Below, in pieces: positions 106-21,268 of a DNA stretch of 46,726 nt. The stretch is from Actinomycetes bacterium (GTDB taxonomy: Bacteria > Actinomycetota > Thermoleophilia > UBA2241). The DNA lies in contig JBAXRL010000001.1 of assembly GCA_037131205.1 (NCBI GenBank), forward strand, positions 1-46,726. The letters are read 5' to 3'. Below the pieces are notes generated by a model that worked only from the letters and a program-made list of their open reading frames with translations, ran no database searches and was not told the DNA's origin. How positions within the stretch are numbered: position 1 is the first letter of the stretch; each line of letters starts with the position of its first letter. Made by a program: the position numbers and the translations under genes.

Positions 106-1209
106 TCACCTTGACCCCCCGCACGCCCGCCTCACCTCCTCCGGCGCGGCGGACGCATTGTCGAGCCTTGGCGGCGTGAGCACCGGCTGGTGGTCCTCTT
201 CGAGGATCCGGCGCCCGTCGTCACCCAGCAGGAAGGCGGCGAGCTCGCCGGCCAGCCCCGGCTCCGGCGCGTTGGCCGGGATCGTGAACGCATAGCGGAT
301 GACGTCGCCGCGGAACACGGGCTTCACGCTGGCGAAACGGCGGAAGTCGAGCTTCACCTCGACGCGCCGGTAGTCGGCGCGACGGCCGGCCTCACCGAGA
401 TCGATCGAGGACGGCAGCCGCACGTACTCCAGGCCGTGCTGCCGCGCGACGCTCTCGTACTCGAAGGCGCAGTCCAGATCGCCCGACTCGAGCAGGGCGA
501 CCAGCTGGATGCTCGCGCCGCGAAGGACGAGGTTGCCGCCCGATTGCGTCTCAAGGATCTCGGGGACCTCGATGACGTCGACGCCTCCGGCGTTGCGCGT
601 GACGGTGACCGGCGTCGTGAAGCGACCCATCATCATGTCCTCGAAGAGGTACGGGTCGTCGTACTCGCGTTCCGCGAGCTGCAGCAGCATGAGGGCGCGG
701 TAGCCGGCGGCGTCGAAACGCGGGTCGGCCAGCCCGAAGCGGACGTCCGGCTGCGTGAGACGTCGGTACCACGTGCGCGCGTCGAGCTCCCCGGCCAGCG
801 GGCTCTTCGGCGAGATCGCCAGCACCATGCGATTGGTGGCGAAGGTGCAATACCAGGACGCGTACGGCTCTCCAGTCTCGTGGTCCACGCGGTCGTACAT
901 GAGCGGCGGGATGAGCTGCTCGTCGGCGCTGACCGCCAGATCGAAGCGGTCGCCGAGCTCGGTGACGTGGCGCAGCACCTGGATGCTGCCGTGGCTCTCG
1001 GTGAGCACGTCCACGTCCGGATGACTGCGCTCGAACTCCGCCGCCAACTGCTCGAACGGCACGATGAGGCTGCCGGCGTACATGAGCTTGACCTGGCGCT
1101 TGTCGCTGCCGCAGCCGACGATGACAAGGCCCAGCGCCACGAGAAGTACGGCCGCGGCCAGGGCCGCGGCCGTACTGGGCCTCGCACGCGTGTGGATGCT
1201 GCTCAGCAC
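106..1209 (-). CDS. wtpA: WtpA-like tungstate/molybdate ABC transporter substrate-binding lipoprotein
   Basis: 367 aa with GTG start. Lipobox LVIVGCGS. The stretch KLMYAGSLIVPFEQLAAEFERSHPDVDV..GSIQVLRHVTELGDRFDLAVSAD..DPRFDAAGYRALMLLQLAE matches my recollection of archaeal/bacterial WtpA (type I PBP oxyanion binders). It is the last visible gene of the riboswitch-led operon. Confidence 0.75.
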   Translation of the reverse strand: MLSSIHTRARPSTAAALAAAVLLVALGLVIVGCGSDKRQVKLMYAGSLIVPFEQLAAEFERSHPDVDVLTESHGSIQVLRHVTELGDRFDLAVSADEQLIPPLMYDRVDHETGEPYASWYCTFATNRMVLAISPKSPLAGELDARTWYRRLTQPDVRFGLADPRFDAAGYRALMLLQLAEREYDDPYLFEDMMMGRFTTPVTVTRNAGGVDVIEVPEILETQSGGNLVLRGASIQLVALLESGDLDCAFEYESVARQHGLEYVRLPSSIDLGEAGRRADYRRVEVKLDFRRFASVKPVFRGDVIRYAFTIPANAPEPGLAGELAAFLLGDDGRRILEEDHQPVLTPPRLDNASAAPEEVRRACGGSR

Positions 1210-1220
1210 AATCGCGTGGC

Positions 1221-2249
1221 CTACTTCACGCGCACTACGATGCGCGCGATGCCGCCCGGCATCTGCGCTTCACTCAGGCCCGGGCCCGCGAGGCGCAGCG
1301 GAAAGAGCTCCTCCGGGAGCTCGCCACCGTCGAGCTTGCCCGCGAGGACGACGTCCTGCTTGCCGGCGATGTCGCGCGAGTCGATGGTCACGACCTCGCC
1401 GGTCGCGGTCTCGATGACGATGTCGTAGCCCTTGCGAGCGAGCGCCGCGTCGTAGGCTCCGGCACCGTGGCGTTTCTTGTCGTCGATCATCCCGGCCACG
1501 AGATACAGCGGGATGCCCTCCCAGCGCTTGCCGGCGGCGTCGACCCAGCCGGAGCCGTGACACCCCGGCGAGGCGCAGTTCACGTAGGTCGGCTTGTCGA
1601 GCTTGCCGGGTACAGCGCCCTCGAGCTGGACCTTCCACTCAGCCGAAGCCTTGGTCACGGAGATGCGCTCGACCCACTTGACCGACCAGTGCCCGTCCAC
1701 GACCTGCCCTCCCGGCGCGGGAGTGCCGACCATCAATCGCAGGGGACCCTCATCCTCACCGAGAGGCTTGCCCTCGCGGGCGTAGGCGATGATCACGGTG
1801 AGGTCCTTCGACGGCGTCTGCTCGCCGCCGGTCGCCGGATCGTAGGCGGTGAACGAGTGGTCGACGATCTGAGCGTAGGAGAAGGTCATGCCGTAGCCGT
1901 CCTTGGCCACGAGAGTGACACCGTTGGCCCTGGTGATGCCGCCGACCAGGTCCGTGAGGTCGCTGAGGCGCACGCCGGTGTACTCGGCGGGCAGCGTGAT
2001 GACGCCGGTGCTGCTCTTGATGCCGGCGTAGCCGGTGTACGCCGGCAGAGCCTTGAGCTGGTTCAGGGTGAACTGCTTCTCGCCCTCTTCGCCGACGAGG
2101 GTGAGGACGACCGACCCGGAGGGGCTGACGGCCGGGGAGGCCTGGTCTGTTGCCTGTGAGCCCGACGAACCTCCGCACGCTGCTAGAAGCGCGACCAGGC
2201 CCACGACCATCACGACGCCGGCCAGCGCCAGCGCGGCGATGCGGTTCAC
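1221..2249 (-). CDS. lipoprotein with two tandem SUOX-fold (Oxidored_molyb-like) domains
   Basis: 342 aa. SD GAGGAGG lies upstream of the ATG. Lipobox LLAACGG. N-domain signature: GKPLGEDEGPLRLMVGTP...HWSVKWVERISV. C-domain signatures: WKVQLEG, CASPGCHGSGW...WEGIPLYL, FPLRLAGPG. Paralog of 2281..3327. Confidence 0.8.
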   Translation of the reverse strand: MNRIAALALAGVVMVVGLVALLAACGGSSGSQATDQASPAVSPSGSVVLTLVGEEGEKQFTLNQLKALPAYTGYAGIKSSTGVITLPAEYTGVRLSDLTDLVGGITRANGVTLVAKDGYGMTFSYAQIVDHSFTAYDPATGGEQTPSKDLTVIIAYAREGKPLGEDEGPLRLMVGTPAPGGQVVDGHWSVKWVERISVTKASAEWKVQLEGAVPGKLDKPTYVNCASPGCHGSGWVDAAGKRWEGIPLYLVAGMIDDKKRHGAGAYDAALARKGYDIVIETATGEVVTIDSRDIAGKQDVVLAGKLDGGELPEELFPLRLAGPGLSEAQMPGGIARIVVRVK

Positions 2250-2280
2250 GCGCCGCCTCCTCGCGCTGTCGTCGCCGGCC

Positions 2281-3327
2281 TCATTTCGGCAGCATCTGGA
2301 TCTTGACGATCTGCCCGACGAAGCTCTTGCCGCCGATCTTGGGACCGACCAGCCGCAGGGGGTAGTAGTCCGCCGTCAGCTCGGACCCCTGCAGCTTGTT
2401 GGCCAGGATGATCTGTTCCTGGTTGCGGATGGTGCGCGAGCCGATGATGGCGGTGGCGCCGGTGGCGGACGTCAGCTTGATGCGGTAGCCCTTGAGCGCC
2501 AGTGCCTCGTTGTAGGCGCCATAGCCGCCGTGACCTTTGCCGCCGTCGATCTTGCCGATGCAGAGGAAGAGCGGGACTCCGGACCACGTCTTCTCCGTCG
2601 CAGTGTCGGTCCACGCCGACCCGTGACATCCGGGCGTGGCACACGAGTCGTACGAGAGGCGGTCGAGCGTGTAGGTCTGGCGCTTGCCCTTCTTGTCCTT
2701 GAGGCCGTACATCTTGACGGTCCACGGGACGACGGCGTTGCGCAGGCTGACGCGATCCACCCACTTGACGAAGAGGTGCCCGGCCGCCACCTGGTTCTCA
2801 TCGGTAGGCTGACAGACGGCGAGACGCAGCGGCCCGTCGCCGGTCGGGCCGGGCGCGATCGCCGCGCCGTGCTCTTCGTAGAGGAGGACGACCGACACCG
2901 GGGCCTTGGCGACTTCCTCCTGCTTGGTGGTGGCGTTGTACATGGGGATGTTGCCGTTGACGACCTCGTCGTAGGTGAGCGTCATCCCGTAGTCGTCGCT
3001 GGCCGTGATGTCCGTCGACTGGAACTCGGGGACGCCCCCGACCTCCTCGAGGAGAGCGGTGAGCTTCACGCCTTTGACGGCGACCGGCGGCGTGACGGTG
3101 CCGGCGCTGTTGATGATGCCGGAATAGCCGGAGTAGGCGGGCAGTGCCTGGAGCTCGGCCATGGTGAACGTCTTCGTGGCACCGTTGCCGACGATGGTCA
3201 GCACGACCGGGTCGGCGGCAGCCGCCTGCGGCGTGCCGCCGGGTACGACGGACCCGGCCAGCACGACGGCGCCCAGCGCCACGAGCACGACGACCACGGC
3301 TCCAATCCAGATCCTTCGCACGTTCAT
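2281..3327 (-). CDS. secreted protein with two tandem SUOX-fold (Oxidored_molyb-like) domains, paralog of 1221..2249
   Basis: The track ORF 2281..3381 was trimmed to the ATG at 3327 (MNVRRIWIGAVVVVLVALG...), which is preceded by SD GAGGGAG. Shares GDGPLRLAV...LFVKWVDRVSL, WTVKMYG, CATPGCHGSAW...WSGVPLFL and YPLRLVGPK with its neighbour. Confidence 0.8.
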   Translation of the reverse strand: MNVRRIWIGAVVVVLVALGAVVLAGSVVPGGTPQAAAADPVVLTIVGNGATKTFTMAELQALPAYSGYSGIINSAGTVTPPVAVKGVKLTALLEEVGGVPEFQSTDITASDDYGMTLTYDEVVNGNIPMYNATTKQEEVAKAPVSVVLLYEEHGAAIAPGPTGDGPLRLAVCQPTDENQVAAGHLFVKWVDRVSLRNAVVPWTVKMYGLKDKKGKRQTYTLDRLSYDSCATPGCHGSAWTDTATEKTWSGVPLFLCIGKIDGGKGHGGYGAYNEALALKGYRIKLTSATGATAIIGSRTIRNQEQIILANKLQGSELTADYYPLRLVGPKIGGKSFVGQIVKIQMLPK

Positions 3328-3456
3328 GGATGCTCCCTCGTGTGAGTGTCTGCGGCGGCCGGCCCGAGCCGGCCGCCGCATTCCGGTCCCGGCGGCGGCG
3401 CAGCGGGGAGAATGGGCGAGAAACCCCCGCCACGCGCGCGCCAGGCCTTGGACGGC

Positions 3457-3912
3457 TCAGAAGATGAGCCGAATCCTGGTTACTCCGCGGGCCGACAGCT
3501 TGTTGTTGAACGGCTGCGTGATCGGAGGGCCGCCGACCAAGCGGAACGGCGCTTCCTCGCCCTCCAGCAGCTTGCCGTCCTTGATCTTGGCGACGATCCA
3601 CCGCTTCTTGCCGATGATCCACTTGCTCGGCAGCTTGGGCTTGTAGCCGTCGCGGCAGAAGAACTGGATCCGGTACCCCTTCTTGGCCAGCGCAACGTTG
3701 AACGAGCTGGGATCCTTGTCGTCCACCAACCCGACCAGCTTGTACAGTGTCTGACCCTTGTAGACGTAGCGCAGCGTCGGGTTGATGTTGCCGGCCTTGT
3801 TGCCGTACCAGGCCACGGTCGCCGGAACCTTACCGATGGGCAGCACCTTCTTGCGCTTGCCCTGTAGCGTCAGCGTCCAGCCTCTCCTGCTCGCGGCACG
3901 GGTCTGGTCAAA
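3457..3912 (-). CDS. third SUOX-like repeat domain lying in the +1 frame relative to 3908..5032 (frameshifted or recoded continuation, or a pseudogene fragment)
   Basis: The frame is open from 3939 down to 3457. The domain begins GWTLTLQGKRKK upstream of the only in-frame start (GTG 3846). That start has no SD and no signal peptide. The +1 frame joins at the C5T4 run and the TTT TGA C site (3913..3907). Confidence 0.55.
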   Translation of the reverse strand, partial: FDQTRAASRRGWTLTLQGKRKKVLPIGKVPATVAWYGNKAGNINPTLRYVYKGQTLYKLVGLVDDKDPSSFNVALAKKGYRIQFFCRDGYKPKLPSKWIIGKKRWIVAKIKDGKLLEGEEAPFRLVGGPPITQPFNNKLSARGVTRIRLIF

Positions 3913-5032
3913 AGGGGGCCGCGCCCGCCGGCGACGACTTCACGATACCGATGCGCACGATCCCTCGAGTCTGAGTGTCTGGGGCGACGGCGGGGACGTT
4001 GCTGACCACCCTGAGCGGCCAATCCGGCACCCACTGCGGCACTCCGCTGCTGTCGACGAACGGCTTGGGCACGGGGAGCGGCTGGCCGTTGCCCAGGCTT
4101 GCGACGATCATCTGCTTGCCGAGCTGAGCGATGTCGGCACTCGCGAACGTCTCGTAAAAGCCGTCCATGCCGAGGATGGTGACGAAGTAGCCCTTCTTGG
4201 CCAGCTTCGCATTGAACGTGCTGCGGTTCTTGTCGTCGAAGTAGCCGACGATCGTCTTGAGGGAAACGCCCGAGTAGGTCACCGTGGACGTGGGGACGGT
4301 GCTGTCGGTGATCGTCACCGTCCTGTTCGCCTTGGCGGCCCAGGCGGCCCACTGCGACGACGTCATGTCGGCGCCGTACTTGGTCGTCACGGTGTTGCGC
4401 AGCTGCAGGTCCCAGCCGTAGGGCTCGGCGGCGGCGGCCGGCGCCACGGCCGGCACGATGCTGAGGCGCACGATTCCGCCGGGCTTCATCTTGCCGGTGA
4501 CGCTGGGGTCGAGGCTGACGATCTTGAGCGGCCAGCTTGGCTTCCAGATGGGCAGGCCGTTCTTGTCGAGCGAGGCCTTGGGAACGGTGAGCGCCTGACC
4601 GCCCGCGAGGTTCGCGACGATGACCTTGTCGCCGAGGCTCGCGACGTCGGCGCTGGCGAACGTCGCGGCGAACCCGTCCATGCCGAGAACGACGACCTTG
4701 TAGCCGCCCGCGGCCAGTTCATCGTTAAACGTGCTGGGGTCGTTGTCGTCGAAGTAGCCGACCAGGGTCTTGAGGGCGACGCCCTTGTAGATCACCGTGT
4801 CGGTGGGAACGCTGCTGTCCGTGATGGTCACCTGGCGGTCCGCCTTCGCGACCCAGGCGGCGAAGGCCTTGTAGGTCAAATCGGCGCCGTACTTGGTCGT
4901 CACGGTGTTGCGCAGCTGCAGGTTCCAGCCGTAGGGCTCGGCGGCGGCGCCTCGCATCGCCAAAGCCGGCGCCGCCAGCGCGAGCATGAGGACCGCCACT
5001 GCCGCAGCGGTCAAGGTCAGCTTCCTGATCAT
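3908..5032 (-). CDS. secreted protein with two tandem cysteine-less SUOX-like repeat domains (171-aa period)
   Basis: The track ORF 3908..5233 was trimmed to the ATG at 5032 (MIRKLTLTAAAVAVLMLALAAPALA, a signal peptide) with SD GGAGGAG 7 nt upstream. Each repeat runs PYGW(N/D)LQLRNTVTTKYGAD...Y.GV.LKT.VGYFDD...WPL(K/R)(I/V)VS. Confidence 0.8.
   Translation of the reverse strand: MIRKLTLTAAAVAVLMLALAAPALAMRGAAAEPYGWNLQLRNTVTTKYGADLTYKAFAAWVAKADRQVTITDSSVPTDTVIYKGVALKTLVGYFDDNDPSTFNDELAAGGYKVVVLGMDGFAATFASADVASLGDKVIVANLAGGQALTVPKASLDKNGLPIWKPSWPLKIVSLDPSVTGKMKPGGIVRLSIVPAVAPAAAAEPYGWDLQLRNTVTTKYGADMTSSQWAAWAAKANRTVTITDSTVPTSTVTYSGVSLKTIVGYFDDKNRSTFNAKLAKKGYFVTILGMDGFYETFASADIAQLGKQMIVASLGNGQPLPVPKPFVDSSGVPQWVPDWPLRVVSNVPAVAPDTQTRGIVRIGIVKSSPAGAAPF
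4368..4948 (-). repeat. intragenic tandem duplication with a 513-nt period
   Basis: The 68-nt segments 4368..4435 and 4881..4948 differ at a single base (tcggcgccgtacttggtcgtcacggtgttgcgcagctgcagg[t/c]cccagccgtagggctcggcggcggc). The offset is exactly 513 nt, i.e. 171 codons. Confidence 0.9.
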
Positions 5033-5164
5033 GGTCCCACTCCTCCCCGGGGTTACTGTACGTGCAGCTCCGAGGGAGGGTAGGAGAGAGCCGTGTCCGC
5101 GGGCGGCGAGGCGCAATCGAGGCGCCGAAGGAGCCTCGTCACGCCGACACCGCGTGGGAGGCCA

Positions 5165-5315
5165 CGAAAAGGGGCCCATCCGCACGCGGAAAGGCCCGGC
5201 AAGGCGCGCTCTCCTTTCCGCACTGGGAGACACGGCGGTTTCCCGCTGTACCCTTCCGGCTTCGGCTCCGTAGGCTCCACACGCCCTTAGGAATCCGAGA
5301 CTCGGAGAAGCCGCC
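5165..5315 (-). promoter_or_regulatory. Moco (molybdenum/tungsten cofactor) riboswitch-like leader with a possible terminator/antiterminator platform
   Basis: Minus-strand RNA is CUUCUCCGAGUCUCGG..GUGGAGCCUACGGAGCC..ACAGCGGGAAACCGCCGUGUCUCCCAGUGCGGAAAGGAGAG. It contains the CUCCGAG, GGAGC, GAAA-capped stem, GUCUCCC and GAAAGGAG blocks I associate with the Moco RNA motif. The P1 candidate is UCUCC/GGAGA. Downstream, CGGAAAGG can alternatively pair with CCUUUCCG. A GC hairpin plus CUUUUC lies at 5165..5200. Confidence 0.65.
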
Positions 5316-5565
5316 GCAGTCTATACGCGCGCGCCCCGCGGCACAAGGTCGCCGCGTCCGACCTGAGGCCGCGCCGTCTGGACATGTTGGCCTGTGCCGT
5401 CGTGTTCCAGCATGGAGCGCATGCTCTTGAGCTGTGCATCGCAGCCTGGGCGAGGAGATGCAGACGCGCCCTCAGGGGTGCGCGCCGGCCGCGCGTCGCC
5501 ATCCAACACCCTGTGTGCCCCCGCCCCGGCATCTGATGTGGCGCATGGGTGGATCCTGGCGCCGC

Positions 5566-5595
5566 TTGACCCGCCCCAGAAGCTTCGGCTACTGT
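5566..5595 (+). promoter_or_regulatory. sigma70-like promoter for the tupA leader
   Basis: TTGACC (5566..5571), an 18-nt spacer, then TACTGT (5590..5595). This places the predicted start about 6 nt before the 5' arm of the riboswitch-like element. Confidence 0.45.
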
Positions 5596-5597
5596 AT

Positions 5598-5712
5598 CGG
5601 CTCTCTTCGAGCGCTGGAGTCCTGCCGGCAGGCGCCCTGCCTATGGAGCTTGCGCCGGCAGGGGACAGCGCGAAACCGCCGTGTCTCTCATGGTGGCCAG
5701 AAGAGATGCTCG
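5598..5712 (+). promoter_or_regulatory. second, diverged Moco-like riboswitch candidate
   Basis: RNA is GGCUCUCUUCGAGCGCUGGAG..CCUAUGGAGCUUGCGCC..ACAGCGCGAAACCGCCGUGUCUCUCAUGG..CCAGAAGAGA. It has a perfect 7-bp closing stem, UCUCUUC/GAAGAGA. A 26-nt core at 5665..5690 differs at only 2 bases from the minus-strand element (plus-strand coordinates 5225..5250). Confidence 0.55.
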
Positions 5713-5837
5713 AGCGAGCTTCGTGCGCTTGTGGAGGGCTCGCTTGTCCGACCCGGCGCGACCCGCGCCTCCCGCCACCGGTATCCGGCTTCCGACGCAC
5801 TCGAAGCAGGTCCGTGAAGCGACATCAGGGAGGTACG

Positions 5838-6785
5838 ATGTTCGGCAGTACGACTGAGATGCTCGTGAGACGCAGCCTGCTCGTGCTCGCCCTCGTGGCG
5901 CTCGCCGTCGCCGCGCTGGTCGGGGCCGGCTTCGCCGGCGGCAGCGGCCACGCCGCCGGGAAGTCCGCGCCCAACAACGCCAGGCTCGTCGTCTACTGCG
6001 CGACCAGCGTGCACGACTCCGGCCTCATGCAGGACGTCGTGCTGCCCGCCTACAACACCGCCCACCCCGGCATCACCGTGAACCCCACCTACGTGGGCTC
6101 CGGTGAGGCCATCCAGGCGGCCCGCGACGGGCTCGCCGACGTCATCATCGTGTGCTCGCCCCCCGACGAGAAGCAGCTTCTGACCGACGGCGTCGCCACC
6201 CTGCGCCTCCCGTTCGCCTACAACTACTTCACCATCGTCGGACCCAAGGGCGACCCGGCCAAGGTCGCCAGGGCCAGGTCGGCCGCCGACGCCTTCAAGC
6301 GCATCGCCGCCTACGGCGCCAGGTTGGCCGCCGGGAAGGTCGCCTTCGTGTCTCGCGGCGATGCCTCCGGCACCAACAAGAAGGAGCTGCAGCTCTGGTA
6401 CGCAGCCGACGTGACCACGTCCGCCGCCACGGCGCCGACCGGGGCCTGGTACATCACAGCCGCCGGCGGCCAGCTGCCTTGTCTTCAGGTCACGGCCGAG
6501 AAAGGCGCCTACACGCTCACCGACACCGCCACCTGGCTGAAGAACCAGAGCACCCTCGCGCCGCTCGTCAAGACCCTGACCAGGAAGGAAGACCTCATGA
6601 ATCAGTACTCCGTGCTGCTCCTGAACCAGATCATGCACGACCAGGTCGCCGCCACCGGCGCCGAGTGGCTGGCCGCCTGGCTCGTGAGCTACGAGGGCCA
6701 GCGGGCCATCGGCGCCTACGGCAGGTCCACGTACGGCCAGCCGCTCTTCGTCCCCAACGCGTCCACCATCTCGGCCCAGCTCTGA
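5838..6785 (+). CDS. tupA: TupA-like tungstate-binding periplasmic protein (orphan substrate-binding protein)
   Basis: The track ORF 5394..6785 was trimmed to the ATG at 5838, preceded by SD GGGAGG. It has a signal peptide. The motifs VYCATSVHDSGL, VGSGEAIQAARDG.ADV, YNYFTIVGPKGDPA and FVSRGDASGTNKKELQLW match the TupA/PBP_like_2 pattern. Confidence 0.7.
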   Translation: MFGSTTEMLVRRSLLVLALVALAVAALVGAGFAGGSGHAAGKSAPNNARLVVYCATSVHDSGLMQDVVLPAYNTAHPGITVNPTYVGSGEAIQAARDGLADVIIVCSPPDEKQLLTDGVATLRLPFAYNYFTIVGPKGDPAKVARARSAADAFKRIAAYGARLAAGKVAFVSRGDASGTNKKELQLWYAADVTTSAATAPTGAWYITAAGGQLPCLQVTAEKGAYTLTDTATWLKNQSTLAPLVKTLTRKEDLMNQYSVLLLNQIMHDQVAATGAEWLAAWLVSYEGQRAIGAYGRSTYGQPLFVPNASTISAQL

Positions 6786-7016: not shown

Positions 7017-8528
7017 TCATGGGCCAAGCGGCTCGCGCAGGCAGGCGTCGGTGGGCGGTCCTCCGGTCTGCCAATCCATCTCGCGGATGGCGACCATCTT
7101 CAACTCAGTCATCTCCCGTATCGCGTATTTCAATCCTTCCCGGCCGATGCCGGAACCCTTGATCCCGCCGTACGGCATATGATCGACGCGGAACGTGGGC
7201 ACCTCGTTGATCATCACGCCGCCGACCTCGAGGCGCTTGGCGGCGTACAAGGCCTTGTTCAAGTCGTTCGTGAAGACTCCTGCCTGCAGCCCCATCGTGC
7301 TGTCGTTGCTGATCGCGATGGCCTCGCACAGATCGCGCGCCTTGAGGATGCTGAGGACGGGGCCGAACACCTCGTTGGCGCACACCTTCATCTCGCGGGT
7401 GACGTCCGTGAGGACGGTGGGCAGCAGGCGGCCGTCGTCGCGGACGCCGCCGGTCGCAAGGGTCGCGCCCTGCTCGAGCGCTTCCTCGATCCAGCCCTTC
7501 ACGCGCGCGACCTCGCCGTCGTTGATCAGCGTCGCCACGTCGGTGGCCTCGTCGAGGGGATCGCCGACCTTGAGCGCCGCGACCCGCGGCACGAGCATGG
7601 CGAGGAACTCGTCGTAGACGGCCGCGTGCACCACGACGCGCTGCACCGAGATGCAGATCTGGCCGGAGTTGGCGAACCCGCCGGCCACGATGCGCTGCAC
7701 CGCGAGGTCGAGATTGGCGTCGTTCTCGACGATGGTCGCCGAGTTGTTGCCCAGCTCGAGCGTGACCATCTTCATGCCCGCGTCGCCGGCGATCCGCCGG
7801 CCCACCGGCGGGCTCCCGGTGAAACTGACCATGTTGGTGCGCTCGTCCATCACCAGCTTGGCGCCGATCGTGGCGCCGGAGCCGACCACGACCTGGAGGA
7901 CGCCGTCGGGCAGACCCGCCTCCGCCAGGAGCTCCGCCAGGCGCAGCGCGGTGAGCGGGGTGTTGGAGGCCGGCTTCAGCACGACGGCGTTGCCGCCGGC
8001 CAGCGCCGGCGCCACCTTGTGCGCCACCAGGTTGAGCGGGAAGTTGAACGGCGAGATCGCGGCGATCACGCCGCGCGGCTCGCGGATCGTCCAGCCGAAG
8101 CGGTTCTCGCCGCTGGGGTCGGCGTCCATCTCGATGAGCTCGCCGGCGGTGCGCTTGGCCTCTTCGCTCGCCCAGCGGAAGGTGGAGGCGCCGCGCGCGG
8201 CCTCGCCGCGCGCGTCCTTGAGCGGCTTGCCACCCTCGGCCGCGATGAGCCGCGCGATCTGCTCGGCGTGGTCCACGATCAGGTGCGAGGCGCGCTCCAG
8301 GATCGCGGCGCGCTTCCAGGCCGGGAACCAGCGGTACGCCTCGGCGGCCGCGCGAGCGCGGTCGAGGACCACGTCGATGTCCGCGAGCGTGGCCGTCGGG
8401 ATCCGTGCCAGCTCGGCGCCGTCCCACGGCGCGCGGAGCACCATCGGCGCCCCGCTGCCGTACGGTCCGCGAATGGTCAGGCCCGGCTGGATGAGGTCGC
8501 TGACCAGCACCTCGGCGTTCGGCTTCAT
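7017..8528 (-). CDS. aldehyde dehydrogenase family protein
   Basis: Trimmed to the ATG at 8528 (MKPNAEV) with SD GGGAGG. ALDH hallmarks are present: FNFPLNL, KPASNTPLT, LELGNNSA (catalytic Glu region), SGQICISVQR (catalytic Cys) and EVFGPV. Confidence 0.85.
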   Translation of the reverse strand: MKPNAEVLVSDLIQPGLTIRGPYGSGAPMVLRAPWDGAELARIPTATLADIDVVLDRARAAAEAYRWFPAWKRAAILERASHLIVDHAEQIARLIAAEGGKPLKDARGEAARGASTFRWASEEAKRTAGELIEMDADPSGENRFGWTIREPRGVIAAISPFNFPLNLVAHKVAPALAGGNAVVLKPASNTPLTALRLAELLAEAGLPDGVLQVVVGSGATIGAKLVMDERTNMVSFTGSPPVGRRIAGDAGMKMVTLELGNNSATIVENDANLDLAVQRIVAGGFANSGQICISVQRVVVHAAVYDEFLAMLVPRVAALKVGDPLDEATDVATLINDGEVARVKGWIEEALEQGATLATGGVRDDGRLLPTVLTDVTREMKVCANEVFGPVLSILKARDLCEAIAISNDSTMGLQAGVFTNDLNKALYAAKRLEVGGVMINEVPTFRVDHMPYGGIKGSGIGREGLKYAIREMTELKMVAIREMDWQTGGPPTDACLREPLGP

Positions 8529-8676
8529 CGTGCGTACCTCCCGGCTGCGATGGATGCGCGCCCTGCGGCGCGGCCGCGCTTGTGAGGGCTCCATACCCGG
8601 CGCGGGGCGCGCCCGAACGGCGGCTGCGCTTCGCGAGTCGGGCGGGCGGGTGCGGAGACAGCCCCGCGGCGCCCCG

Positions 8677-8902: not shown

Positions 8903-10978
8903 TCACGACGATCCCCCGACCCACCGACCGAGGGCCATCAGGGGGAAGACCATGCGGTACAGGTGGTAGTTGATGTACAGGTCGCCGGGGAAACCGGTGG
9001 CGGTGAAGGAGGGCTCGTCCCAGGCGCCGTCGGCGCGCTGGGTCTCGACCAGGAAGCGGATCCCGCGCGCGGCGGCCTCCCCCCGGTCTCCGGCGGCCAC
9101 GAACGCGAGCAAGGCCCAGGCCGTCTGCGACGGCGTCGACTCGCCGCGACCTCGCCAGCTGGCGTCCCGGTACGAGCGCGGATCCTCACCCCAGCCGCCG
9201 TCGGCGTTCTGGTGGTCGGCGAGCCAGGCGAGCGCCCTCACGATCGGGGGCGCCTGCGGCGGCACGCCCGCTTTCACGAGCGCGGGCACGACGGCGCCCG
9301 TGCCGTACACGTGGTTCGCTCCCCAGCGTCCGTACCAGGAGCCGTCGTCCTCCTGCGCGCGCAGCAGCCATTGCAGCCCCCGGTTCATCACCTCGCGGTG
9401 CGCGCAGGGGGCCTCGGCGAGCATCTCCACGACGTGCGCGGTCACGTCGGCGCTGGGGGGGTCGATGACCGCCCCGAAGTCGCAGAAGGGCAGCGCCGTG
9501 CACAGCTTGCGCGTGTTGTCGGCGTCGAAAGCCGCCCAGCCACCGTCGCGGCTGCGCATGCCCACCACCCACTCCACGCCTCTGCGGACCGCCGCCTGCA
9601 CGCGCTCGAGGTCAGGGCCGACCGGCCCCTGTTCGGCGCCCGCGCCGGCCGCCGTACCGCCGCTGTCCGGCCCGACCAGGCGGCGCAGGGACATCGCCAC
9701 GATGGCGGTGTCGTCGATGTCGGGGTAGATGTCGTTGGCGAACTCAAAGGCCCAGCCGCCCGGACGCAGGTGCGGTCGGCGGACCGCCCAGTCGCCTGTG
9801 GTCGTGATCTCTTCCCGCAGGATCCACCGCCCAGCCCGCACGAGCGCGGGGTGGTCGGCGGCGAGCCCCGTGTCGGTCAGCGCCAGGATGCTGAGAGCCG
9901 TGTCCCACACCGGGGATTGGCAGGCCTCCAGCCAACGCATCCCGTCCTTCTCGACCATAAAGCCGTCGAGGCCGCGGATGCCGGCCGCCATGACCGGATG
10001 GTCGTTCGCGTAGCCCTCCAGGTGCAGGGCCAGGAGGGAGTACACCCAGGGAGGCTGGATACCGCCCCAGCAACCGTCGGCCTCCTGGCGCGCGAGCACC
10101 CACAGGACCGCGCGGTCCAGGGCGAGGCGCCGGAGCGGCTTCAGGGGAAGCTTCTCCAGGCGCCGCAGCGTCGCGTCGAGGAGGGTGAGGCAACCGGAGG
10201 CGGAGCGGAGGCGGAGCGGGGGCTTCACCGGGCGCTGCGTGCGCAGCTCGTCGATCCCGAACGATACGCCGCGCACGGGGCGATGGTGCGCCACGATCGA
10301 CAGGGCCACGATGGTCGGGCGCGCCCAGGAGGCGAAGTCGTACGGGTTGAGAGGGAACCAGGATGGGAGCAGGTTGATCTCGGCGGGGATCGCCGGAGTC
10401 CTGTCCCAAGGCCAGAGGCCGACGAGGGCCAGCCAGATGTGGGTGAAGACCCGGGCCTTCTCGACGCCGCCCGAGCCGCGGACCAGCGCGGCGGCGCGGA
10501 GCATGTGCTCTGCCGTGGAGGGGTCGCCCGCGAGGCGCAGAGCGACGTACGCCTCGACGCTCGTCGAAAGGTCGGGGGGGCCTTCGAAGTAAGTGGCCCA
10601 GCTGCCGTCCTCGCGCTGCTTCGAGCGGATCCAGGCGGCCGAGCGCGCGGTCTCGTCGTCGCGGCGGATACCGATGAATTCCCGGAAGAGCAGGTCCTCG
10701 GCGTCCATGGTGACGTTGGTCTCGAGATCGCCTTTCCACCAGCCGGCGGGGTCCTGGAGCGCCAGCAGCGCGTCGCGGCCGCGGGCGGCGGCCTGGCGCG
10801 CCTGGTCACGGAGCTCGGCGGCGGCCGGCCCGGTGGCGCCGGTGGAGGGCGGTTCGCCCCCGCTGGGGGATGACGGCCTAGTCACGCCGCCCCACAAACC
10901 TCGCCAGATCCGCCAGAGCGTCGCGCGCCGGGTCGACGAGCGCCCGCGGCCGTTCGAGGATCGGGGGTGGCCCCTCAT
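8903..10978 (-). CDS. shc: squalene-hopene cyclase
   Basis: 691-aa ORF with GWWKGDLETNVTMDAEDLLFREF, the DxDDTA motif (PDIDDTAIVAM) and repeated QW-type motifs (DGGW/DGSW). The start is uncertain: the ATG at 10978 gives an Arg-rich N-terminus, and the GTG at 10885 is an alternative. Confidence 0.9.
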   Translation of the reverse strand: MRGHPRSSNGRGRSSTRRATLWRIWRGLWGGVTRPSSPSGGEPPSTGATGPAAAELRDQARQAAARGRDALLALQDPAGWWKGDLETNVTMDAEDLLFREFIGIRRDDETARSAAWIRSKQREDGSWATYFEGPPDLSTSVEAYVALRLAGDPSTAEHMLRAAALVRGSGGVEKARVFTHIWLALVGLWPWDRTPAIPAEINLLPSWFPLNPYDFASWARPTIVALSIVAHHRPVRGVSFGIDELRTQRPVKPPLRLRSASGCLTLLDATLRRLEKLPLKPLRRLALDRAVLWVLARQEADGCWGGIQPPWVYSLLALHLEGYANDHPVMAAGIRGLDGFMVEKDGMRWLEACQSPVWDTALSILALTDTGLAADHPALVRAGRWILREEITTTGDWAVRRPHLRPGGWAFEFANDIYPDIDDTAIVAMSLRRLVGPDSGGTAAGAGAEQGPVGPDLERVQAAVRRGVEWVVGMRSRDGGWAAFDADNTRKLCTALPFCDFGAVIDPPSADVTAHVVEMLAEAPCAHREVMNRGLQWLLRAQEDDGSWYGRWGANHVYGTGAVVPALVKAGVPPQAPPIVRALAWLADHQNADGGWGEDPRSYRDASWRGRGESTPSQTAWALLAFVAAGDRGEAAARGIRFLVETQRADGAWDEPSFTATGFPGDLYINYHLYRMVFPLMALGRWVGGSS

Positions 10979-11016
10979 GCCGGTTCATGGTCGCCTCCAG
11001 GGGCGTCGCCCTTGTG

Positions 11017-12351
11017 TCATTCCGTCAGCGCCTCCGCCGCCGCTCCGCCGCTGCGGACAGCGCTCTCCATTGTGGCGGGCCAACCCGTGTCTGTCCACGC
11101 CCCGGCGAGGAAGACCCCGGGGATGGGCGATCGGCTCCCCACCCGGTGAGCGTCGCTGCCGGGCGCCGCGCGGAACGTGGCCCGGGGGCTGCGCGTGACA
11201 TGGGCCTCGAGGAGCTCCGCTTCCCTCGCCGCCGGGAACAGCCGTTGCAGGTCGCGCGCGACCCGGGCCACCAGCGGCGCGCTCGCGAGGCGCACGCAGT
11301 CGTCGGCCGCCGACAGCGACACCACGAGATACCGGCCCGGCTCCGACCCCACCATGGCCGAACGGTCGAACACCCACTGCGCCGTCGTTCCCAGACAGGC
11401 GGCCACGGCGAAGGGCATGGCCGGACGGTCGTAGTACAGGTGCAGGTTCACGATCGGCGAGACGCCAAGGTGGCGCAGGCTGTCGGCGAGCTCCTCCGGG
11501 GCGGCCGGCAACAATCCGGCGAGCCGATAGTGGGGCACGGCGAGAATCGCGGCGCCGGCCTCGAGTGCGGCGCCGTCCTCGAGCAGCAGGCGGACCGGAC
11601 CGCCACTCCGCCCGTCGACCGCCGCCACGCCGCTCCGCGGCCGGACGACGACCCCCGCGGCGGCCAGCGCCTGGCCGGCCAGGTCGTTGTGCAGGCGCGA
11701 CAAGGGGACGGTCGCCCAGCCTATGTCCGCGGCCGCCGCATCGTGCAGCAGGCCCATCTGCAAGGTGCGAGCCGCCGCGAGCAACGAGGCCTCGGTGGCT
11801 CGAACGTTGAGCGTGGGGAGAGAGACGAGGTCCCAGAGGCGTTCGATGGCCTGGTCCGACTGCCGCTGCTCGCGCAGCCACGAGGCAAAGGTCCTCTCGT
11901 CCAGCGAGCGGTCGTCGCCGTCGAGGCGGCGCAAGGCCCACGCGGCCGCGCCCACGCGCAGCCGCTCAACGGCGGACAGGCGCCCGTAGCGGGCGACCGC
12001 CGCCGCCAGGTGCAGGGGGGCGGGCCAGGAGCCGCGCCGGATCCATGCCGGGGCCAGGCCCGGCCGCACGACCGGAATCTCGAGGCGTTCCTGCAGGTAA
12101 AGGCACTGCTGCCCTCCGATCCGTTCGACCAGCGAGCGATAGGCCGTGCAGCAGCGCAAGAAGACGTGCTGGCCGTTGTCCTGCCAGCGGCCCCGCCGCA
12201 GGACCGACGCTGCCGCTCCCCCCAGATGGGGCCGTTTCTCGAGGAGCACCACCCGGGCGCCGGCGGCGGCGGCGGACAGGGCCGCGGCGATGCCCGCGAG
12301 CCCGCCCCCGACGACCACCACATCGGGCGCCGCGGCGTCGGGCGCCCTCAT
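11017..12351 (-). CDS. hpnE: hydroxysqualene dehydroxylase (FAD-dependent amine-oxidase family)
   Basis: Start chosen at the ATG at 12351 (SD GGGGAG 6 nt upstream); the track start is 12414. Carries DVVVVGGGLAGIAAAL...LLEKRPHLGG...NGQHVFLRCCTAY. Positioned between hpnD and shc. Confidence 0.8.
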   Translation of the reverse strand: MRAPDAAAPDVVVVGGGLAGIAAALSAAAAGARVVLLEKRPHLGGAAASVLRRGRWQDNGQHVFLRCCTAYRSLVERIGGQQCLYLQERLEIPVVRPGLAPAWIRRGSWPAPLHLAAAVARYGRLSAVERLRVGAAAWALRRLDGDDRSLDERTFASWLREQRQSDQAIERLWDLVSLPTLNVRATEASLLAAARTLQMGLLHDAAAADIGWATVPLSRLHNDLAGQALAAAGVVVRPRSGVAAVDGRSGGPVRLLLEDGAALEAGAAILAVPHYRLAGLLPAAPEELADSLRHLGVSPIVNLHLYYDRPAMPFAVAACLGTTAQWVFDRSAMVGSEPGRYLVVSLSAADDCVRLASAPLVARVARDLQRLFPAAREAELLEAHVTRSPRATFRAAPGSDAHRVGSRSPIPGVFLAGAWTDTGWPATMESAVRSGGAAAEALTE

Positions 12352-12394
12352 GCGCGACTCCCCGGATCGCCGCGCCTGGGCTGCCGCCCGGCGA

Positions 12395-13255
12395 TCACGT
12401 GGGCAGGCCGACAAGCGCTCGAGACGCGAGCCGGGTCTTCTCCCATGCGGAGAGCGAGACGCGGCCCACGAGCGGCAGCTCGGGCTCGACCTCTATGCGC
12501 TCGAGCAAGCGGCGGTAGATGCCCGCCATGGTGGCGACGCACGCTCGGCTGCGGTAGTCGAGGAGGGGGAGCAGGGTGAGCCCCTGGTCGTACCAGGAGC
12601 GCGCGCGGCGCGCCTCGTACGACACCAGGAGGGCCAGCCTGTCGCGGTCGCCGGTCAGATCGTCGCGGCACCCGAAGCCCACGATGTCCTCGCGGGGGAT
12701 GTAGACCCGACCCATCTCCTCGCGGTCTTCCACGACGTCCCGCAGGATGTTGGTGATCTGCAGGGCGATCCCCAGGGCGTCGGCGAGCGGCGCCGCGACC
12801 GCCATGTCCCGCACCCCGAATATCGAAACCGACAGCCTGCCGATGCTGCCGGCGACGAGCCGGCAGTACCGCACGAGCTCGTCGCAAGTCTGGATGGTCG
12901 TGCGCGTGCAGTCCAGCTCGCAGCCGTCGATGAGCTCCTCGAAGGCGCCGAGCGGCAGCGGGTAGCGCGCGGCGACCGCGCGCAGAGCGCACAGCACCGG
13001 GTCGGGACGCGAAGCGCCGCCGCCGGTCGGTACGGACAGCGTCCTGACCTGCGCGCGGATGCGTTCCAGCTCCGCGAGCTTGGCCTGCGCAAGGAGCGCG
13101 CCGTCTCCGACGTCGTCGATCCGCCGGGCAAGGGCGTAGACGGCCGAGAGCGCCTGACGCTTCGGCCTCGACAGAAGGCGGATGCCGTAAGCGAAGTTCC
13201 TGGCCTGCCCCCGGGTGATCAGTTCGCAGTGCCTGAACGCTTCCTCGGTGTTCAT
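12395..13255 (-). CDS. hpnD: presqualene diphosphate synthase (squalene/phytoene synthase family)
   Basis: 286 aa from the ATG at 13255 (MNTEEAFRHCELITRGQARNFAYGIRLL...YALARRIDDVGD...NILRDVVEDREEMGRVYIP). The 635-aa track ORF is read-through into out-of-frame hpnC sequence. Confidence 0.85.
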   Translation of the reverse strand: MNTEEAFRHCELITRGQARNFAYGIRLLSRPKRQALSAVYALARRIDDVGDGALLAQAKLAELERIRAQVRTLSVPTGGGASRPDPVLCALRAVAARYPLPLGAFEELIDGCELDCTRTTIQTCDELVRYCRLVAGSIGRLSVSIFGVRDMAVAAPLADALGIALQITNILRDVVEDREEMGRVYIPREDIVGFGCRDDLTGDRDRLALLVSYEARRARSWYDQGLTLLPLLDYRSRACVATMAGIYRRLLERIEVEPELPLVGRVSLSAWEKTRLASRALVGLPT

Positions 13256-14157
13256 CCGGTCGCTCCCCCGGCTCTTTGTCCGCGTGCCTCCGCCACGATG
13301 CCGAGGGACCGCATGAGGATGTGGCGCCTGCTCGGCCGGGTCGGGTGTCGCGCCACATCGTAGCCCGCCGCCGCGATGGCGTCCAGAGCGGCCGATCCGC
13401 CGCCCGCGAACCCGGCGATGGCCAGCCTGAGCCGCCCCCGCAGCGACCCCGCCAGCGGCGCCCCGGCGGCCAGCAGGCCTCGCGCTCGTCCGACCTCGAA
13501 GGTCATGAGGCGCACGAAGCCCGGCGTGGTCGCGCCCCTCAAGATCTGCGCCTCCTCGACGCCGAAGCGGGCGAGATCCTCCCCGGGCAGGTAGATGCGG
13601 CCCCGCGCGGCGTCCTCCGCGACGTCCTGCCAGTGCTCCGCCAGCTGGAGCCCCGTGCACACGTCGTCGGACCACGCCGCCCTCGCGGGGGTGAACGTCC
13701 CCGTCGCCATGAGGACCAGGCGCCCCACCGGCTCCGCGGACAGGCGGCAGTACGCCCGCAGGTCGGCGAACGTGGCGTAGCGCTTGACGCGCTGGTCCAT
13801 GCGGTTGGCGGCGATGAGCGCCAGGAAGGGCTCCGCGGGCAGCCGGCATTCGCGGATCGTCGCGGAGAGCTCCGCGAGAATGGGATGGCGGGCGGCGCCG
13901 GCGAACGCCTGCTCCAGCTCCGACTGGAGCCGGTCGAGGTGCCGCGAGCGGTCCCCGGCGGCCTCGTCGCCGAGGTCGTCGGCGAGGCGCGCGAAGCCGT
14001 AGATCGCCAGAAGATGGCGGCGCGTCGCGCGGGGCAGGAACCACGACGCCACCGGGAAGTTCTCCCGCGCGGCCTTGCCCATGACGTCGGCGACGCTGAG
14101 TCCCCCAAGGGACGCATCGACCGCCGACTCTGAACCCGCGGAGTGTATCTGAGACAC
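13252..14157 (-). CDS. hpnC: hydroxysqualene synthase (squalene/phytoene synthase family)
   Basis: 301 aa with ENFPVASWFLPR...YGFARLADDLGDE...LQLAEHWQDVAEDAARGRIYLP. It has a 4-nt ATGA overlap with the hpnD start. Confidence 0.85.
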   Translation of the reverse strand: MSQIHSAGSESAVDASLGGLSVADVMGKAARENFPVASWFLPRATRRHLLAIYGFARLADDLGDEAAGDRSRHLDRLQSELEQAFAGAARHPILAELSATIRECRLPAEPFLALIAANRMDQRVKRYATFADLRAYCRLSAEPVGRLVLMATGTFTPARAAWSDDVCTGLQLAEHWQDVAEDAARGRIYLPGEDLARFGVEEAQILRGATTPGFVRLMTFEVGRARGLLAAGAPLAGSLRGRLRLAIAGFAGGGSAALDAIAAAGYDVARHPTRPSRRHILMRSLGIVAEARGQRAGGATG

Positions 14158-15331: not shown

Positions 15332-15580
15332 TCACCCTCCCCCGAGGGGCGGGAACAGCGAGATCTCGTCGCCGGGCGCGAGCATCTGGTCGGCGCCGGC
15401 GTGCACACCGTTGACGAGGATGATCCCCGTGGCGCCGGGTTTGAGGCCGAGACGCGCGACGACCGCGCCCACGGTAGGGGTCTCGGTCAGCGGCAAGGCC
15501 TGCTGCGTGCGGCGTGCGGCGGTCTGCGTCTCGAGGCCGGCGAACAGCCGCGCGGTGATCGTGTCAGTCGGGGTCGTCAT
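15332..15580 (-). CDS. MoaD/ThiS-family ubiquitin-like sulfur-carrier protein
   Basis: 82 aa from the ATG at 15580, ending ...GDEISLFPPLGGG (a diglycine C-terminus). It overlaps the gcvPB 3' end by 17 nt. Confidence 0.7.
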   Translation of the reverse strand: MTTPTDTITARLFAGLETQTAARRTQQALPLTETPTVGAVVARLGLKPGATGIILVNGVHAGADQMLAPGDEISLFPPLGGG

Positions 15581-17270
15581 GCCCGGACTGTACCACCCAT
15601 CGCGACTCGCGCAGCCCGGCCTGTGGCGAGCGCTCGTCGGGCTCGTCCCCGCGTCCGCCGCCGCCGTGCTTTCTCCGGTAGGCGCGCCACGTGACCGCCC
15701 ACTCCCCGGGCTCCACGAACCTCTCCCACGTGCGGATCCGGCCGCACGCCTGATTGTGAGGCGCCGACGCCAGCAGCTCGGGCCTGTCGTAGGCGTCATC
15801 CACCGAGCGCTTCAGCGCCGCCGCCCAGTAGTCGAGATCCTCCTTCGAGTAGGTCTCGCAGGGCTCCGGCGTGAACGGCTCGGGGACGATCCAGGGGCGA
15901 TGGCTCGTGAACCAGGTCTGCACACCGAAGTCACAGAACCTCGCCTTCATGTCCTCGGTGCCGAAGCCGGTGTCCTCTTTGAGGGCTTCGAAGCTGTAGC
16001 GGATCTGGTCCCAGCGCCGCCGGCCTTCGGCGTATGGATAGCTGACGCCGCGGATCTCGCGGAGCTGGGCTTCAAGGTAGCTGTTGTTGATGATGCTCAC
16101 TTCGGCGACCTCTCTGAGGCCGCGGGCGCCGAGGGACATCGTCCACGCGTAGGCGCGCACGACCACGGCCAGGTTGCCGAGAAACGCGCGCAGCTTGCCG
16201 ATCGCGTGAGGTCGCCGCGAATCGAGGTGGTAGCGGATCCCGTGCTCCGCGGATCCGTCCGCGACGGCGACGATGTGTGGCGCGGGCAGATAAGGTGCGA
16301 GCGCGGCCGTCACCCCGAGGGCGCCGGCGCCGGGCCCCTTGCAGCCGTGAGGGCTACCGAACGTCTTATGAAGATTGAAGTGGCAGGCGTCGAACCCCGC
16401 CTCGCGAGCGCGGCTGACGCCCAGGAGCCCGTTCAGGTTGGCCTGATCGCAGTAGCACAGTGCGCCCGCGTCGTGGGCGGCCTGCGTGTACTCACGGATC
16501 GCGGGGTTGAAGATCCCTGTATCCTCCGGATTTGTGATCATGATGGCCGCGGTGCGCTCGCTCAGCGCCGCCCTCAGCGCCTCCAGATCGGGGTAGCCGT
16601 CGTCGGCGGGCATCAGCGTGATGATCTTGTAGCCTGCAGTGGCAGGGCAGGCGCTGTCGCAGGGATGCGAGAAGATGGTGGTGATCACCTCGTCGCGCCG
16701 GTCCTCGCCCCTCTCGTGGAAGTATTTGCGCGCCATCGCGGCGAAACCGAAGGCCGCCGCGGAGCCCCCACCGGGCTGAAACGAGAAGTCGTCCATGCCG
16801 GAGATCTCGCAGAGCATCCCGGCCATACGGTGGCAGATCTCGAGGATGCCCTGCAGTGAGCCCTCCGGCTGCTCGGGATGCAGTTCCAACACCTTGTGCG
16901 ACCGCACGAGCTGTTCGTTGACCTTGGGGCTGTACTTCATCGTGCACGTGCCTTCGCCGATATCGATGGTCACGTCGATGCCCAGCGTCATCTGCGACAG
17001 ACGCGTGAAGTGACGCAGCACCTGCGGCTGACTGACCTCGGGAAGCGCCGGCGGCGACCTGCGCACAAGAGCCGCGGGGAGCAGATCCTCCGCGGGGGCG
17101 ACGTCCGCCGCCACATCGGTCGCCTGAGGAGGGATGACGCCGCGCTCGCCGGGGCGCCCCATCTCCATGATCAGAGGCTCGTCCCAGCGCATGGCATGAA
17201 AGTCGCGCAGCAGCCCGCCGTCGCGACGCAGAAGCGCATTCCTCGCGAGCTTCTCTTGTGCGTGATTCAT
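15564..17270 (-). CDS. gcvPB: glycine dehydrogenase (aminomethyl-transferring) subunit 2
   Basis: 568 aa with LPEVSQPQVLRHFTRLSQ, GTCTMKYSPK and FNLHKTFGSPHG (PLP-Lys region). It has an ATGA overlap with the gcvPA stop. The C-terminus is about 60 aa longer than usual. Confidence 0.85.
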   Translation of the reverse strand: MNHAQEKLARNALLRRDGGLLRDFHAMRWDEPLIMEMGRPGERGVIPPQATDVAADVAPAEDLLPAALVRRSPPALPEVSQPQVLRHFTRLSQMTLGIDVTIDIGEGTCTMKYSPKVNEQLVRSHKVLELHPEQPEGSLQGILEICHRMAGMLCEISGMDDFSFQPGGGSAAAFGFAAMARKYFHERGEDRRDEVITTIFSHPCDSACPATAGYKIITLMPADDGYPDLEALRAALSERTAAIMITNPEDTGIFNPAIREYTQAAHDAGALCYCDQANLNGLLGVSRAREAGFDACHFNLHKTFGSPHGCKGPGAGALGVTAALAPYLPAPHIVAVADGSAEHGIRYHLDSRRPHAIGKLRAFLGNLAVVVRAYAWTMSLGARGLREVAEVSIINNSYLEAQLREIRGVSYPYAEGRRRWDQIRYSFEALKEDTGFGTEDMKARFCDFGVQTWFTSHRPWIVPEPFTPEPCETYSKEDLDYWAAALKRSVDDAYDRPELLASAPHNQACGRIRTWERFVEPGEWAVTWRAYRRKHGGGGRGDEPDERSPQAGLRESRWVVQSGHDDPD

Positions 17271-18700: not shown

Positions 18701-18707
18701 CGAGGGG

Positions 18708-18883
18708 GGGTAGCCGGTCAGCTCCTCCTCTGTGTCCGCTCCCGTCGCAGGCGCACGTCATATCGGCCGCGGTGAGCGGCCCGACGACCGCGCCGTGGTG
18801 GGCGCCCCGGAGACCGGCGCCTGACTCCCGCCCTCGCCGGTCCCCGCAGGCAGGGTATCGCAGCGGGAGCTGACCGGCTACCC
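18708..18883 (-). promoter_or_regulatory. perfect 18-bp long-range inverted repeat enclosing a GC-rich ~140-nt segment in the gcvPA leader / divergent promoter region
   Basis: gggtagccggtcagctcc (18708..18725) is the exact reverse complement of ggagctgaccggctaccc (18866..18883). The proximal arm abuts GAGGAGGAG on the gcvPA-sense strand. Confidence 0.6.
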
Positions 18884-18933
18884 TCATCCTGCCGATAGAG
18901 CAGCCGCCCACGCGGCGCGCGGAGAGGAGAGGG

Positions 18934-21258: not shown

Positions 21259-21268
21259 GGAGGGCTGC

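Follow-up and report, generated by a model that had tools for sequence, protein, structure and literature searches.

The DNA analysed here, called the window throughout, comprises 46,726 nucleotides (nt) of contig JBAXRL010000001.1 (assembly GCA_037131205.1) from an Actinomycetes bacterium of the Thermoleophilia (UBA2241), with a G+C content of about 70%. Two divergent leaders are found within its intergenic region at 5033-5837. The minus-strand leader carries a canonical aptamer of the Moco/Tuco riboswitch family (RF01055), and the plus-strand leader, upstream of a gene for a TupA-like tungstate-binding protein, carries a second and diverged copy of the same RNA with its own promoter, as the initial annotation had described. 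We consider it probable that this plus-strand element is the decaying relic of a Tuco-type riboswitch which is likely to be blind to its ligand. The features of the two leaders on which this reading is built are the following (RF01055 and R1 being the family-wide and the lineage-specific covariance model, respectively):

5566-5571, plus strand: -35 hexamer TTGACC of the tupA leader promoter, read in the sequence; TTGAC invariant in 11 orthologous leaders
5590-5595, plus strand: -10 hexamer TACTGT (TAnnnT), with an 18-nt spacer from the -35 hexamer; T, A and final T invariant in the 11 leaders
5595-5719, plus strand: degenerate P3-less Moco/Tuco-type aptamer, the probable riboswitch relic (RF01055 25.3 bits; R1 79.7 bits)
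5602-5608, plus strand: P1 5' strand UCUCUUC, pairing perfectly over 7 bp with 5700-5706
5621-5626, plus strand: former tetraloop-receptor 5' half, CCUGCC in place of CCUAAG/CCUACG; pair 5626-5642 broken
5661-5686, plus strand: P4 with GAAA loop (5672-5675); closing pair 5671-5676 is C-C and pair 5664-5683 is G-G
5685-5689, plus strand: core block CUCUC (family consensus CUCCC), C-to-U at 5688
5695-5700, plus strand: core block GGCCAG (family consensus GGAAAG), A-to-C at 5697 and 5698
5700-5706, plus strand: P1 3' strand GAAGAGA, pairing with 5602-5608
5711-5746, plus strand: expression-platform hairpin, arms AGCGAGC (5713-5719) and GCUCGCU (5738-5744); terminator-like, without a U tract
5768-5773, plus strand: CCUCCC, predicted by RNAalifold as anti-Shine-Dalgarno
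5828-5833, plus strand: Shine-Dalgarno sequence GGGAGG, with ATG at 5838
5838-6785, plus strand: gene for the TupA-like tungstate-binding protein (315 aa), without tupBC downstream
5195-5319, minus strand: intact paralogous P3-less Moco/Tuco riboswitch of the divergent operon (RF01055 53.7 bits; R1 124 bits), used as internal control

The promoter hexamers and the perfect 7-bp end helix noted initially are thus in place, and the Shine-Dalgarno sequence lies 1 nt downstream of the 5827-5832 given for it. The promoter was not called by a generic sigma-70 pattern scan of the window, and the scan likewise called none in L102 or L086; it is accepted here because TTGAC and TAnnnT are invariant across species, ahead of the aptamer in 11/11 aligned orthologous leaders. 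From the position of the -10 hexamer, the transcript is likely to start at about 5601-5603, with the first bases of P1. The 26-nt core ACAGCGCGAAACCGCCGUGUCUCUCA (5665-5690, plus strand) differs from its minus-strand counterpart ACAGCGGGAAACCGCCGUGUCUCCCA at 2/26 positions, as first reported, and the block CUAUGGAGC, reported as shared, reads CUACGGAGC in the minus copy, a difference of 1 nt. Since the whole leader is identical in L081, an independent assembly, the plus-strand element is not an assembly error.

The product of the gene at 5838-6785 matches Pfam PBP_like_2 (E 2.8e-28), and in NCBIfam the best-scoring family is TupA, with 118 bits against a cutoff of 400; homologues carry the JGI label of tungstate transport substrate-binding protein. 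The next gene is a convergent aldehyde dehydrogenase gene (7017-8594), which makes tupA an orphan, in agreement with the initial description, and no tupBC-like genes were found in the whole window.

The identity of the plus-strand RNA was established by comparison with TupA homologues that were gathered together with their loci from genomes and metagenomes (L-numbers denote loci). RF01055 aligns to the plus strand over its full length (model positions 1-135, at 5595-5719) with 25.3 bits and an E-value of 9e-4 in a 551-nt search; the score falls short of the gathering score (36 bits), so the element is absent from the hits at that threshold, and the identical L081 element has an E-value of about 0.07 in a 43-kb search. 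Taken alone, the RF01055 score is borderline. The model R1, built from 17 canonical members of the lineage, gives the plus-strand element 79.7 bits (E 7e-18), compared with 102-127 bits for canonical relatives. Upstream of tupA, at the position that corresponds to the window element, canonical RF01055 aptamers (53.7-62.2 bits) are found in L001 (CAVQSP010000013.1, a Thermoleophilia metagenome-assembled genome), L002, L084, L085, L086 and L139, whose TupA proteins are 75-82% identical to that of the window, and the 11-leader alignment includes five of these relatives. The tupA-side orthologues have in common the P1 variant CUCUUCGAG...AGAAGAG (CUCC/GGAG changed to CUUC/GAAG), in which the swapped pair is C-G in 11 sequences, U-A in 6 and broken in none; the alignment thereby indicates that the swap is a real compensatory change, ancestral to all tupA-side copies.

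In view of the canonical aptamers at orthologous loci, the R1 score, the common promoter and the P1 covariation, homology of the plus-strand element to the Moco/Tuco riboswitch is, on sequence grounds, certain. The initial annotation had allowed for a fortuitous 26-nt similarity without common ancestry, and an RF01055 score under the gathering score is what such a similarity might give. With the alignment extending over the full length, the R1 E-value of 7e-18 and the canonical aptamers at orthologous tupA loci, that explanation has a negligible probability and is regarded as refuted. The element also lies in the 5' leader of a Mo/W transport-type gene. The back-to-back arrangement, first thought to be unusual, is retained with two canonical aptamers in L001, L085, L086 and L139-L142. 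A third canonical P3-less Moco/Tuco aptamer occurs a few kb downstream of tupABC in L001 (8574-8696, minus strand) and L002 (8578-8700, minus strand), upstream of open reading frames of 449 and 385 aa without Pfam match.

Family-defining bases of the plus copy have been lost. Six changes affect columns with at least 95% conservation within the lineage. The A-to-G change at 5624 and the G-to-C change at 5626 (A33G and G35C, both columns at least 95% conserved) break the pair 5626-5642, U-to-G at 5664 breaks a P4 pair, and G-to-C at 5671 breaks the pair closing the GAAA loop. In the core, C-to-U at 5688 turns CUCCC into CUCUC, and AA-to-CC at 5697-5698 turns GGAAAG into GGCCAG. The column of 5688 is C in 70/70 other aptamers, from several phyla, and U in none; those of 5697 and 5698 are A in 67/70 and 69/70, respectively, and C in none. 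Compared with the conserved core blocks CUCCGAG, CUCCC and GGAAAGGAG, the window therefore shows CUCUC and GGCCAG. In the family, a GNRA tetraloop on P4 docks into a receptor in the P2 bulge (PMC2408646); in the window copy the GAAA loop is present, with a C-C closing pair, and the receptor half reads CCUGCC. The changes to the canonical blocks had been described as compensatory-looking. This applies to the P1 swap, which is general to the tupA-linked orthologues; judged by alignment, it is the only compensatory change, and the others (CUCUC, GGCCAG, CCUGCC and the GAAA closing pair) are unpaired-core or pair-breaking changes at near-invariant positions.

The relatives closest to the window by TupA identity are L081 (98%), L082 (97%), L083 (91%) and L087 (91%), with L138 at 83%. 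The plus copies of the window/L081, L082, L083 and L087 score 25.3-27.4 bits with RF01055 and the relatives' minus copies 52-57 bits; the aptamer of L138, which has a leader of the variant type, went undetected by RF01055 at E<=1. Measured against 20 canonical lineage aptamers, the window, L082, L083 and L087 each carry 6-7 changes where conservation reaches at least 95%; of the canonical aptamers themselves, 19/20 carry 0-3 such changes and the divergent L088 carries 8. The lesions of these sister lineages are independent and mostly different: CUUCC in L082; CCCCG and a GCAA loop with disrupted stem in L087; CGAA for CGAG, ACGG for AGGG and a 1-nt loop deletion in L083. In L138, as read from the alignment, they are a 2-nt loop deletion, CUCUC and GGUCGAAUG.

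The aptamer also evolves at a neutral-like rate. Of 94 aligned aptamer columns, 10-20 differ between clade members in the plus copy, and 0-2 in the minus copy for the same genome pairs. When aptamer divergence (K) is divided by the synonymous divergence (dS) of tupA, clade members give ratios of 1.2-8.5 and canonical relatives ratios of 0.04-0.42, and divergence of the plus aptamer is similar to that of the spacer and the distal leader. For tupA, the ratio of nonsynonymous to synonymous divergence (dN/dS) lies at 0.25-0.46 within the clade and also beyond it; the one exception is the pair window-L082, for which 1.14 was obtained on about 15 differences. Decay of tupA itself was rejected on these values. 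Read together, the differing lesions, the rates and the deletions in the expression platform (described below) have the signature of relaxed selection rather than of a new conserved consensus.

Aptamer decay is seen at all five orphan-tupA loci (window, L081, L082, L083, L087). Wherever a relative has a canonical aptamer on the tupA side and the sequence beyond tupA can be read, the gene order is tupA-tupB-tupC. Some tupABC loci (L003, L089, L090 and L091, with 66-69% TupA identity) have no aptamer detectable by RF01055 or R1, which could mean that the leader riboswitch was wholly lost in a separate event, or that this sub-lineage lacks one. Loss of tupBC as the cause of the relaxed selection was considered and set aside, because L138 combines a decayed aptamer with a downstream tupB. 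In L138 (1-1866), the leader and the first ~350 nt of tupA are 82-96% identical to the window (mostly 84-93%), and a sliding-window comparison gives 75-85% for the 3' part of tupA, which tupB follows; L138 is possibly a mosaic in which a decayed leader recombined with an intact tupAB(C). An aldehyde dehydrogenase homologue is found upstream of the riboswitch-tupABC unit and on the same strand in the more distant relatives L004 (2089-3573), L092-L094 and L106; in the window clade it lies downstream of tupA and convergent, a shift in position that suggests a rearrangement accompanying the loss of tupBC.

Folding predictions show that the plus copy misfolds energetically. Its consensus Moco fold lies 25.0 kcal/mol above the minimum free energy (MFE) structure, compared with 1.8-11.1 kcal/mol in 20 canonical aptamers; the gap is 19.5 kcal/mol in L082, 19.2 kcal/mol in L087 and 9.3 kcal/mol in L083. 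Of the 34 consensus pairs, 28 can form, against 29-30 in the canonical tupA-side copies compared. The MFE structure (-63.1 kcal/mol, z = -4.0) keeps P1 and pairs GCGCUG (5612-5617) with CAGCGC (5667-5672) and CCUGCCGGC (5621-5629) with GCCGGCAGG (5655-5663), the latter two being perfectly complementary after the receptor changes. The derived changes C-to-G at 5616 and G-to-C at 5671, which extend GCGCUG/CAGCGC, are common to the window, L082, L087 and L138. When this alternative fold is projected on the relatives, 36-37/40 pairs are possible in L082, L087 and L138, 28-32 in canonical aptamers and 31/40 in L083, a comparison biased by the derivation of the fold from the window's own sequence. 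Because canonical relatives already satisfy about 75% of it and double compensatory changes are entirely lacking, the alternative fold is treated here as drift into a latent competitor fold and not as a selected structure.

The two copies had been suggested to differ in ligand specificity, Moco versus the tungsten cofactor, or in set point. The only published discriminator between the subtypes is the P3 stem, present in Moco and absent in Tuco RNAs (PMC2408646). As the P3 model positions are deleted in the RF01055 alignments of both window copies, plus and minus, both aptamers are by this criterion of the P3-less Tuco type, with no Moco/Tuco split between them, and a different cofactor specificity was rejected. 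A new specificity or set point would moreover predict a new conserved consensus, and what the sister lineages show instead is lesions that differ from one to the next, in an aptamer evolving as fast as the spacer. For validated variant riboswitches, such as the FMN variants (PMC6298564) and the guanine-class variants (PMC9295807), the same deviant nucleotides are reported from one representative to the next, together with a shift in the associated genes. Neither is seen here, as the lesions vary among the window, L082, L083, L087 and L138 and the gene is still tupA.

Several observations weigh against a relic that no longer senses. CGAG, GCC, AGGG and the GAAA loop are retained in the window copy, and P1, the promoter, the platform hairpin and the Shine-Dalgarno sequence are conserved in most clade members. 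The purifying selection on tupA implies that the leader is still in use, and it could keep some regulatory role. A few natural Moco RNAs are without the tetraloop receptor (PMC2408646), so the receptor lesion is not by itself disabling. Tertiary contacts do not enter into nearest-neighbour energies, and the folding argument is therefore supportive and not decisive. Since our literature search found no paper with a ligand-bound 3D structure of a Moco riboswitch, the ligand-contacting bases cannot be named. Finally, the decayed aptamer of L138 is followed by tupB, and loss of tupBC therefore only correlates with decay. A Tuco/Moco riboswitch that still functions with weakened affinity, and hence a different set point, while tolerating the lost receptor contact and a few core changes, would accommodate several of these points, together with the full-length RF01055 alignment and the 28/34 consensus pairs that can form. 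We nevertheless hold it to be unlikely, as it leaves to be explained the unique substitutions at core columns 96-100% conserved, the other lesions of the sister lineages, the lack of excess conservation over the spacer, the 25 kcal/mol by which the consensus fold is disfavoured, and the state of two relatives, of which L087 is missing one half of the hairpin in the platform and L138 escapes detection by RF01055.

The leader might alternatively have acquired a new function, either as a sensor for another ligand or as a ligand-independent structured 5' untranslated region (UTR) with a selected alternative hairpin. The derived changes at 5616 and 5671 in four lineages, the full complementarity gained through the receptor changes, the higher pair counts in L082, L087 and L138 and the MFE z-score of -4.0 speak for it. 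However, the projection is biased as noted, canonical relatives already allow most of the fold, double compensations are missing, L083 with its canonical-range count does not share it, and the core lesions differ by lineage with the gene still being tupA, unlike in the variant classes cited above, so that we rate a neofunctionalised leader as improbable. Within it, the proposal that substitutions at 5616, 5671 and 5624-5626 converted the aptamer scaffold into a selected long hairpin locking P1 is likewise given little credence. Were it true, the level of tupA would be set independently of the cofactor or by a different signal, and the two independent 30-nt platform deletions would be secondary tuning events.

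For the reading that we prefer, a decaying Tuco-type relic, the following course of events is proposed. The ancestor would have been a P3-less Tuco-type riboswitch of the Moco family controlling tupABC in related Thermoleophilia, presumably an OFF switch in which cofactor binding closed P1 and allowed the downstream hairpin to form, with expression dropping through termination and/or masking of the Shine-Dalgarno sequence. In the window clade, purifying selection on the plus aptamer would then have been lost, after which lineage-specific substitutions could build up in the core, the GNRA tetraloop and its receptor, and a non-native fold of much greater stability would have come to prevail by drift. 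The leader is now probably a fixed, cofactor-blind 5' UTR consisting of the promoter, a P1-closed long hairpin, a platform hairpin without U tract and the Shine-Dalgarno sequence. Loss of ligand binding in the window copy is most likely, and its present expression state may be either constitutively ON or constitutively attenuated.

The region between the aptamer and tupA bears on the ancestral switch. A hairpin is found directly 3' of P1 in all orthologous leaders. In the window it folds at -18.9 kcal/mol (5711-5746) and is not followed by a U tract; its equivalent in L102 is an 8-9-bp G+C-rich stem and then UUUUUCGU. A terminator pattern scan called none in the window, L102 or L086, and the terminator reading of the hairpin was made by eye and from the fold. 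A small alternative hairpin (5705-5711 with 5716-5722) shares bases with the 3' strand of P1 as well as with the 5' arm of this platform hairpin, as an antiterminator would. The proposed masking of the Shine-Dalgarno sequence by CCUCCC (5768-5773) is in part borne out, in that RNAalifold pairs the two in five variant-clade leaders, but without covariation. The 30 nt directly after the platform hairpin are deleted in the window and L081 and kept in L082, L087 and L138; a separate 30-nt deletion in L087 took the 5' arm and loop of the hairpin. Both deletions are flanked by short direct repeats, of UGU type in window/L081 (site 5745-5749, compared with 1372-1405 of L082) and GGCUCG in L087 (at about 1370). 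In L092 (1081-1110, by eye), AAAGGAGAGC, the 3' strand of P1, seems able to form a hairpin with GCUCCUUUCG further downstream, followed by a U-rich tail; such a hairpin would use the 3' strand of P1 itself, and the expression platform there may follow a different logic.

The minus-strand aptamer (5195-5319), a canonical RF01055 match, heads an operon which, riboswitch included, extends over 106-5319. Its first two genes (5032-3908 and 3846-3457) encode secreted-looking proteins of 374 and 129 aa without match in Pfam or NCBIfam, followed by two Oxidored_molyb proteins and a WtpA-type tungstate-binding protein (TIGR03730, 260 bits, above cutoff). The 374-aa protein is internally duplicated (residues ~32-192 and 203-363), the 129-aa protein is similar to one of its repeats, and the layout of the operon recurs in L001, L081 and L139. 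The window surroundings at 8903-14157 and 15564-23236 contain a hopanoid-type cluster (squalene-hopene cyclase, an amine-oxidase-type HpnE-like protein and SQS_PSY), two glycine-cleavage P-protein subunits and rpsF-ssb-rplI-dnaB. At the contig end of L082 (3617-3694), a sub-threshold mir-B6 match on both strands (38 bits, gathering score 89) is most likely a palindromic assembly end or chance.

On the preferred reading, the locus offers a natural case of loss of riboswitch function with a built-in control, the intact paralogue being 280 nt away and almost invariant in the same genomes. For annotation it is a caution that a sub-threshold covariance-model match can be a true homologue which no longer senses, and the lesions of the clade would provide a small natural mutational map of the positions that a Moco/Tuco aptamer cannot lose. 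No new ligand class or mechanism is revealed.

Among known systems, the plus-strand element is closest to the Tuco subtype of RF01055 (PMC2408646), with which it has in common, by alignment, P1, P2, P4 with a GAAA loop, P5 and the absence of P3, as well as the kind of gene association (a tungstate transporter component) and a direct orthology to canonical members. It differs from that subtype in its sub-threshold score, the lost receptor half, the broken closing pair, three unique core substitutions and the disfavoured fold, and it is best filed as a relic member of RF01055 and not as a new variant class. Compared with the canonical divergent pair, in which an operon of unknown-protein, Oxidored_molyb and WtpA genes faces tupABC (e.g. 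L001), the layout, the promoter hexamers, the P1 U-A pair and the hairpin position are the same. In the metagenome-assembled genomes with that pair, the aptamers on both sides exceed the RF01055 threshold (53.7-63.6 bits) and tupB and tupC lie behind tupA, whereas in the window tupBC is absent and the plus copy decayed. Multiple and tandem Moco RNAs per genome have already been noted (PMC2408646) and tandem riboswitches have been reviewed (PMC9481103). The window likewise has two aptamers of one class close together, but they belong to opposite strands and to separate promoters and operons. As they do not share an mRNA, no cooperative or logic-gate function is implied. Like the validated altered-specificity variants, the plus copy deviates from its parent class at otherwise conserved nucleotides; unlike in those, its deviations vary by sister lineage and its association with tupA is unchanged.

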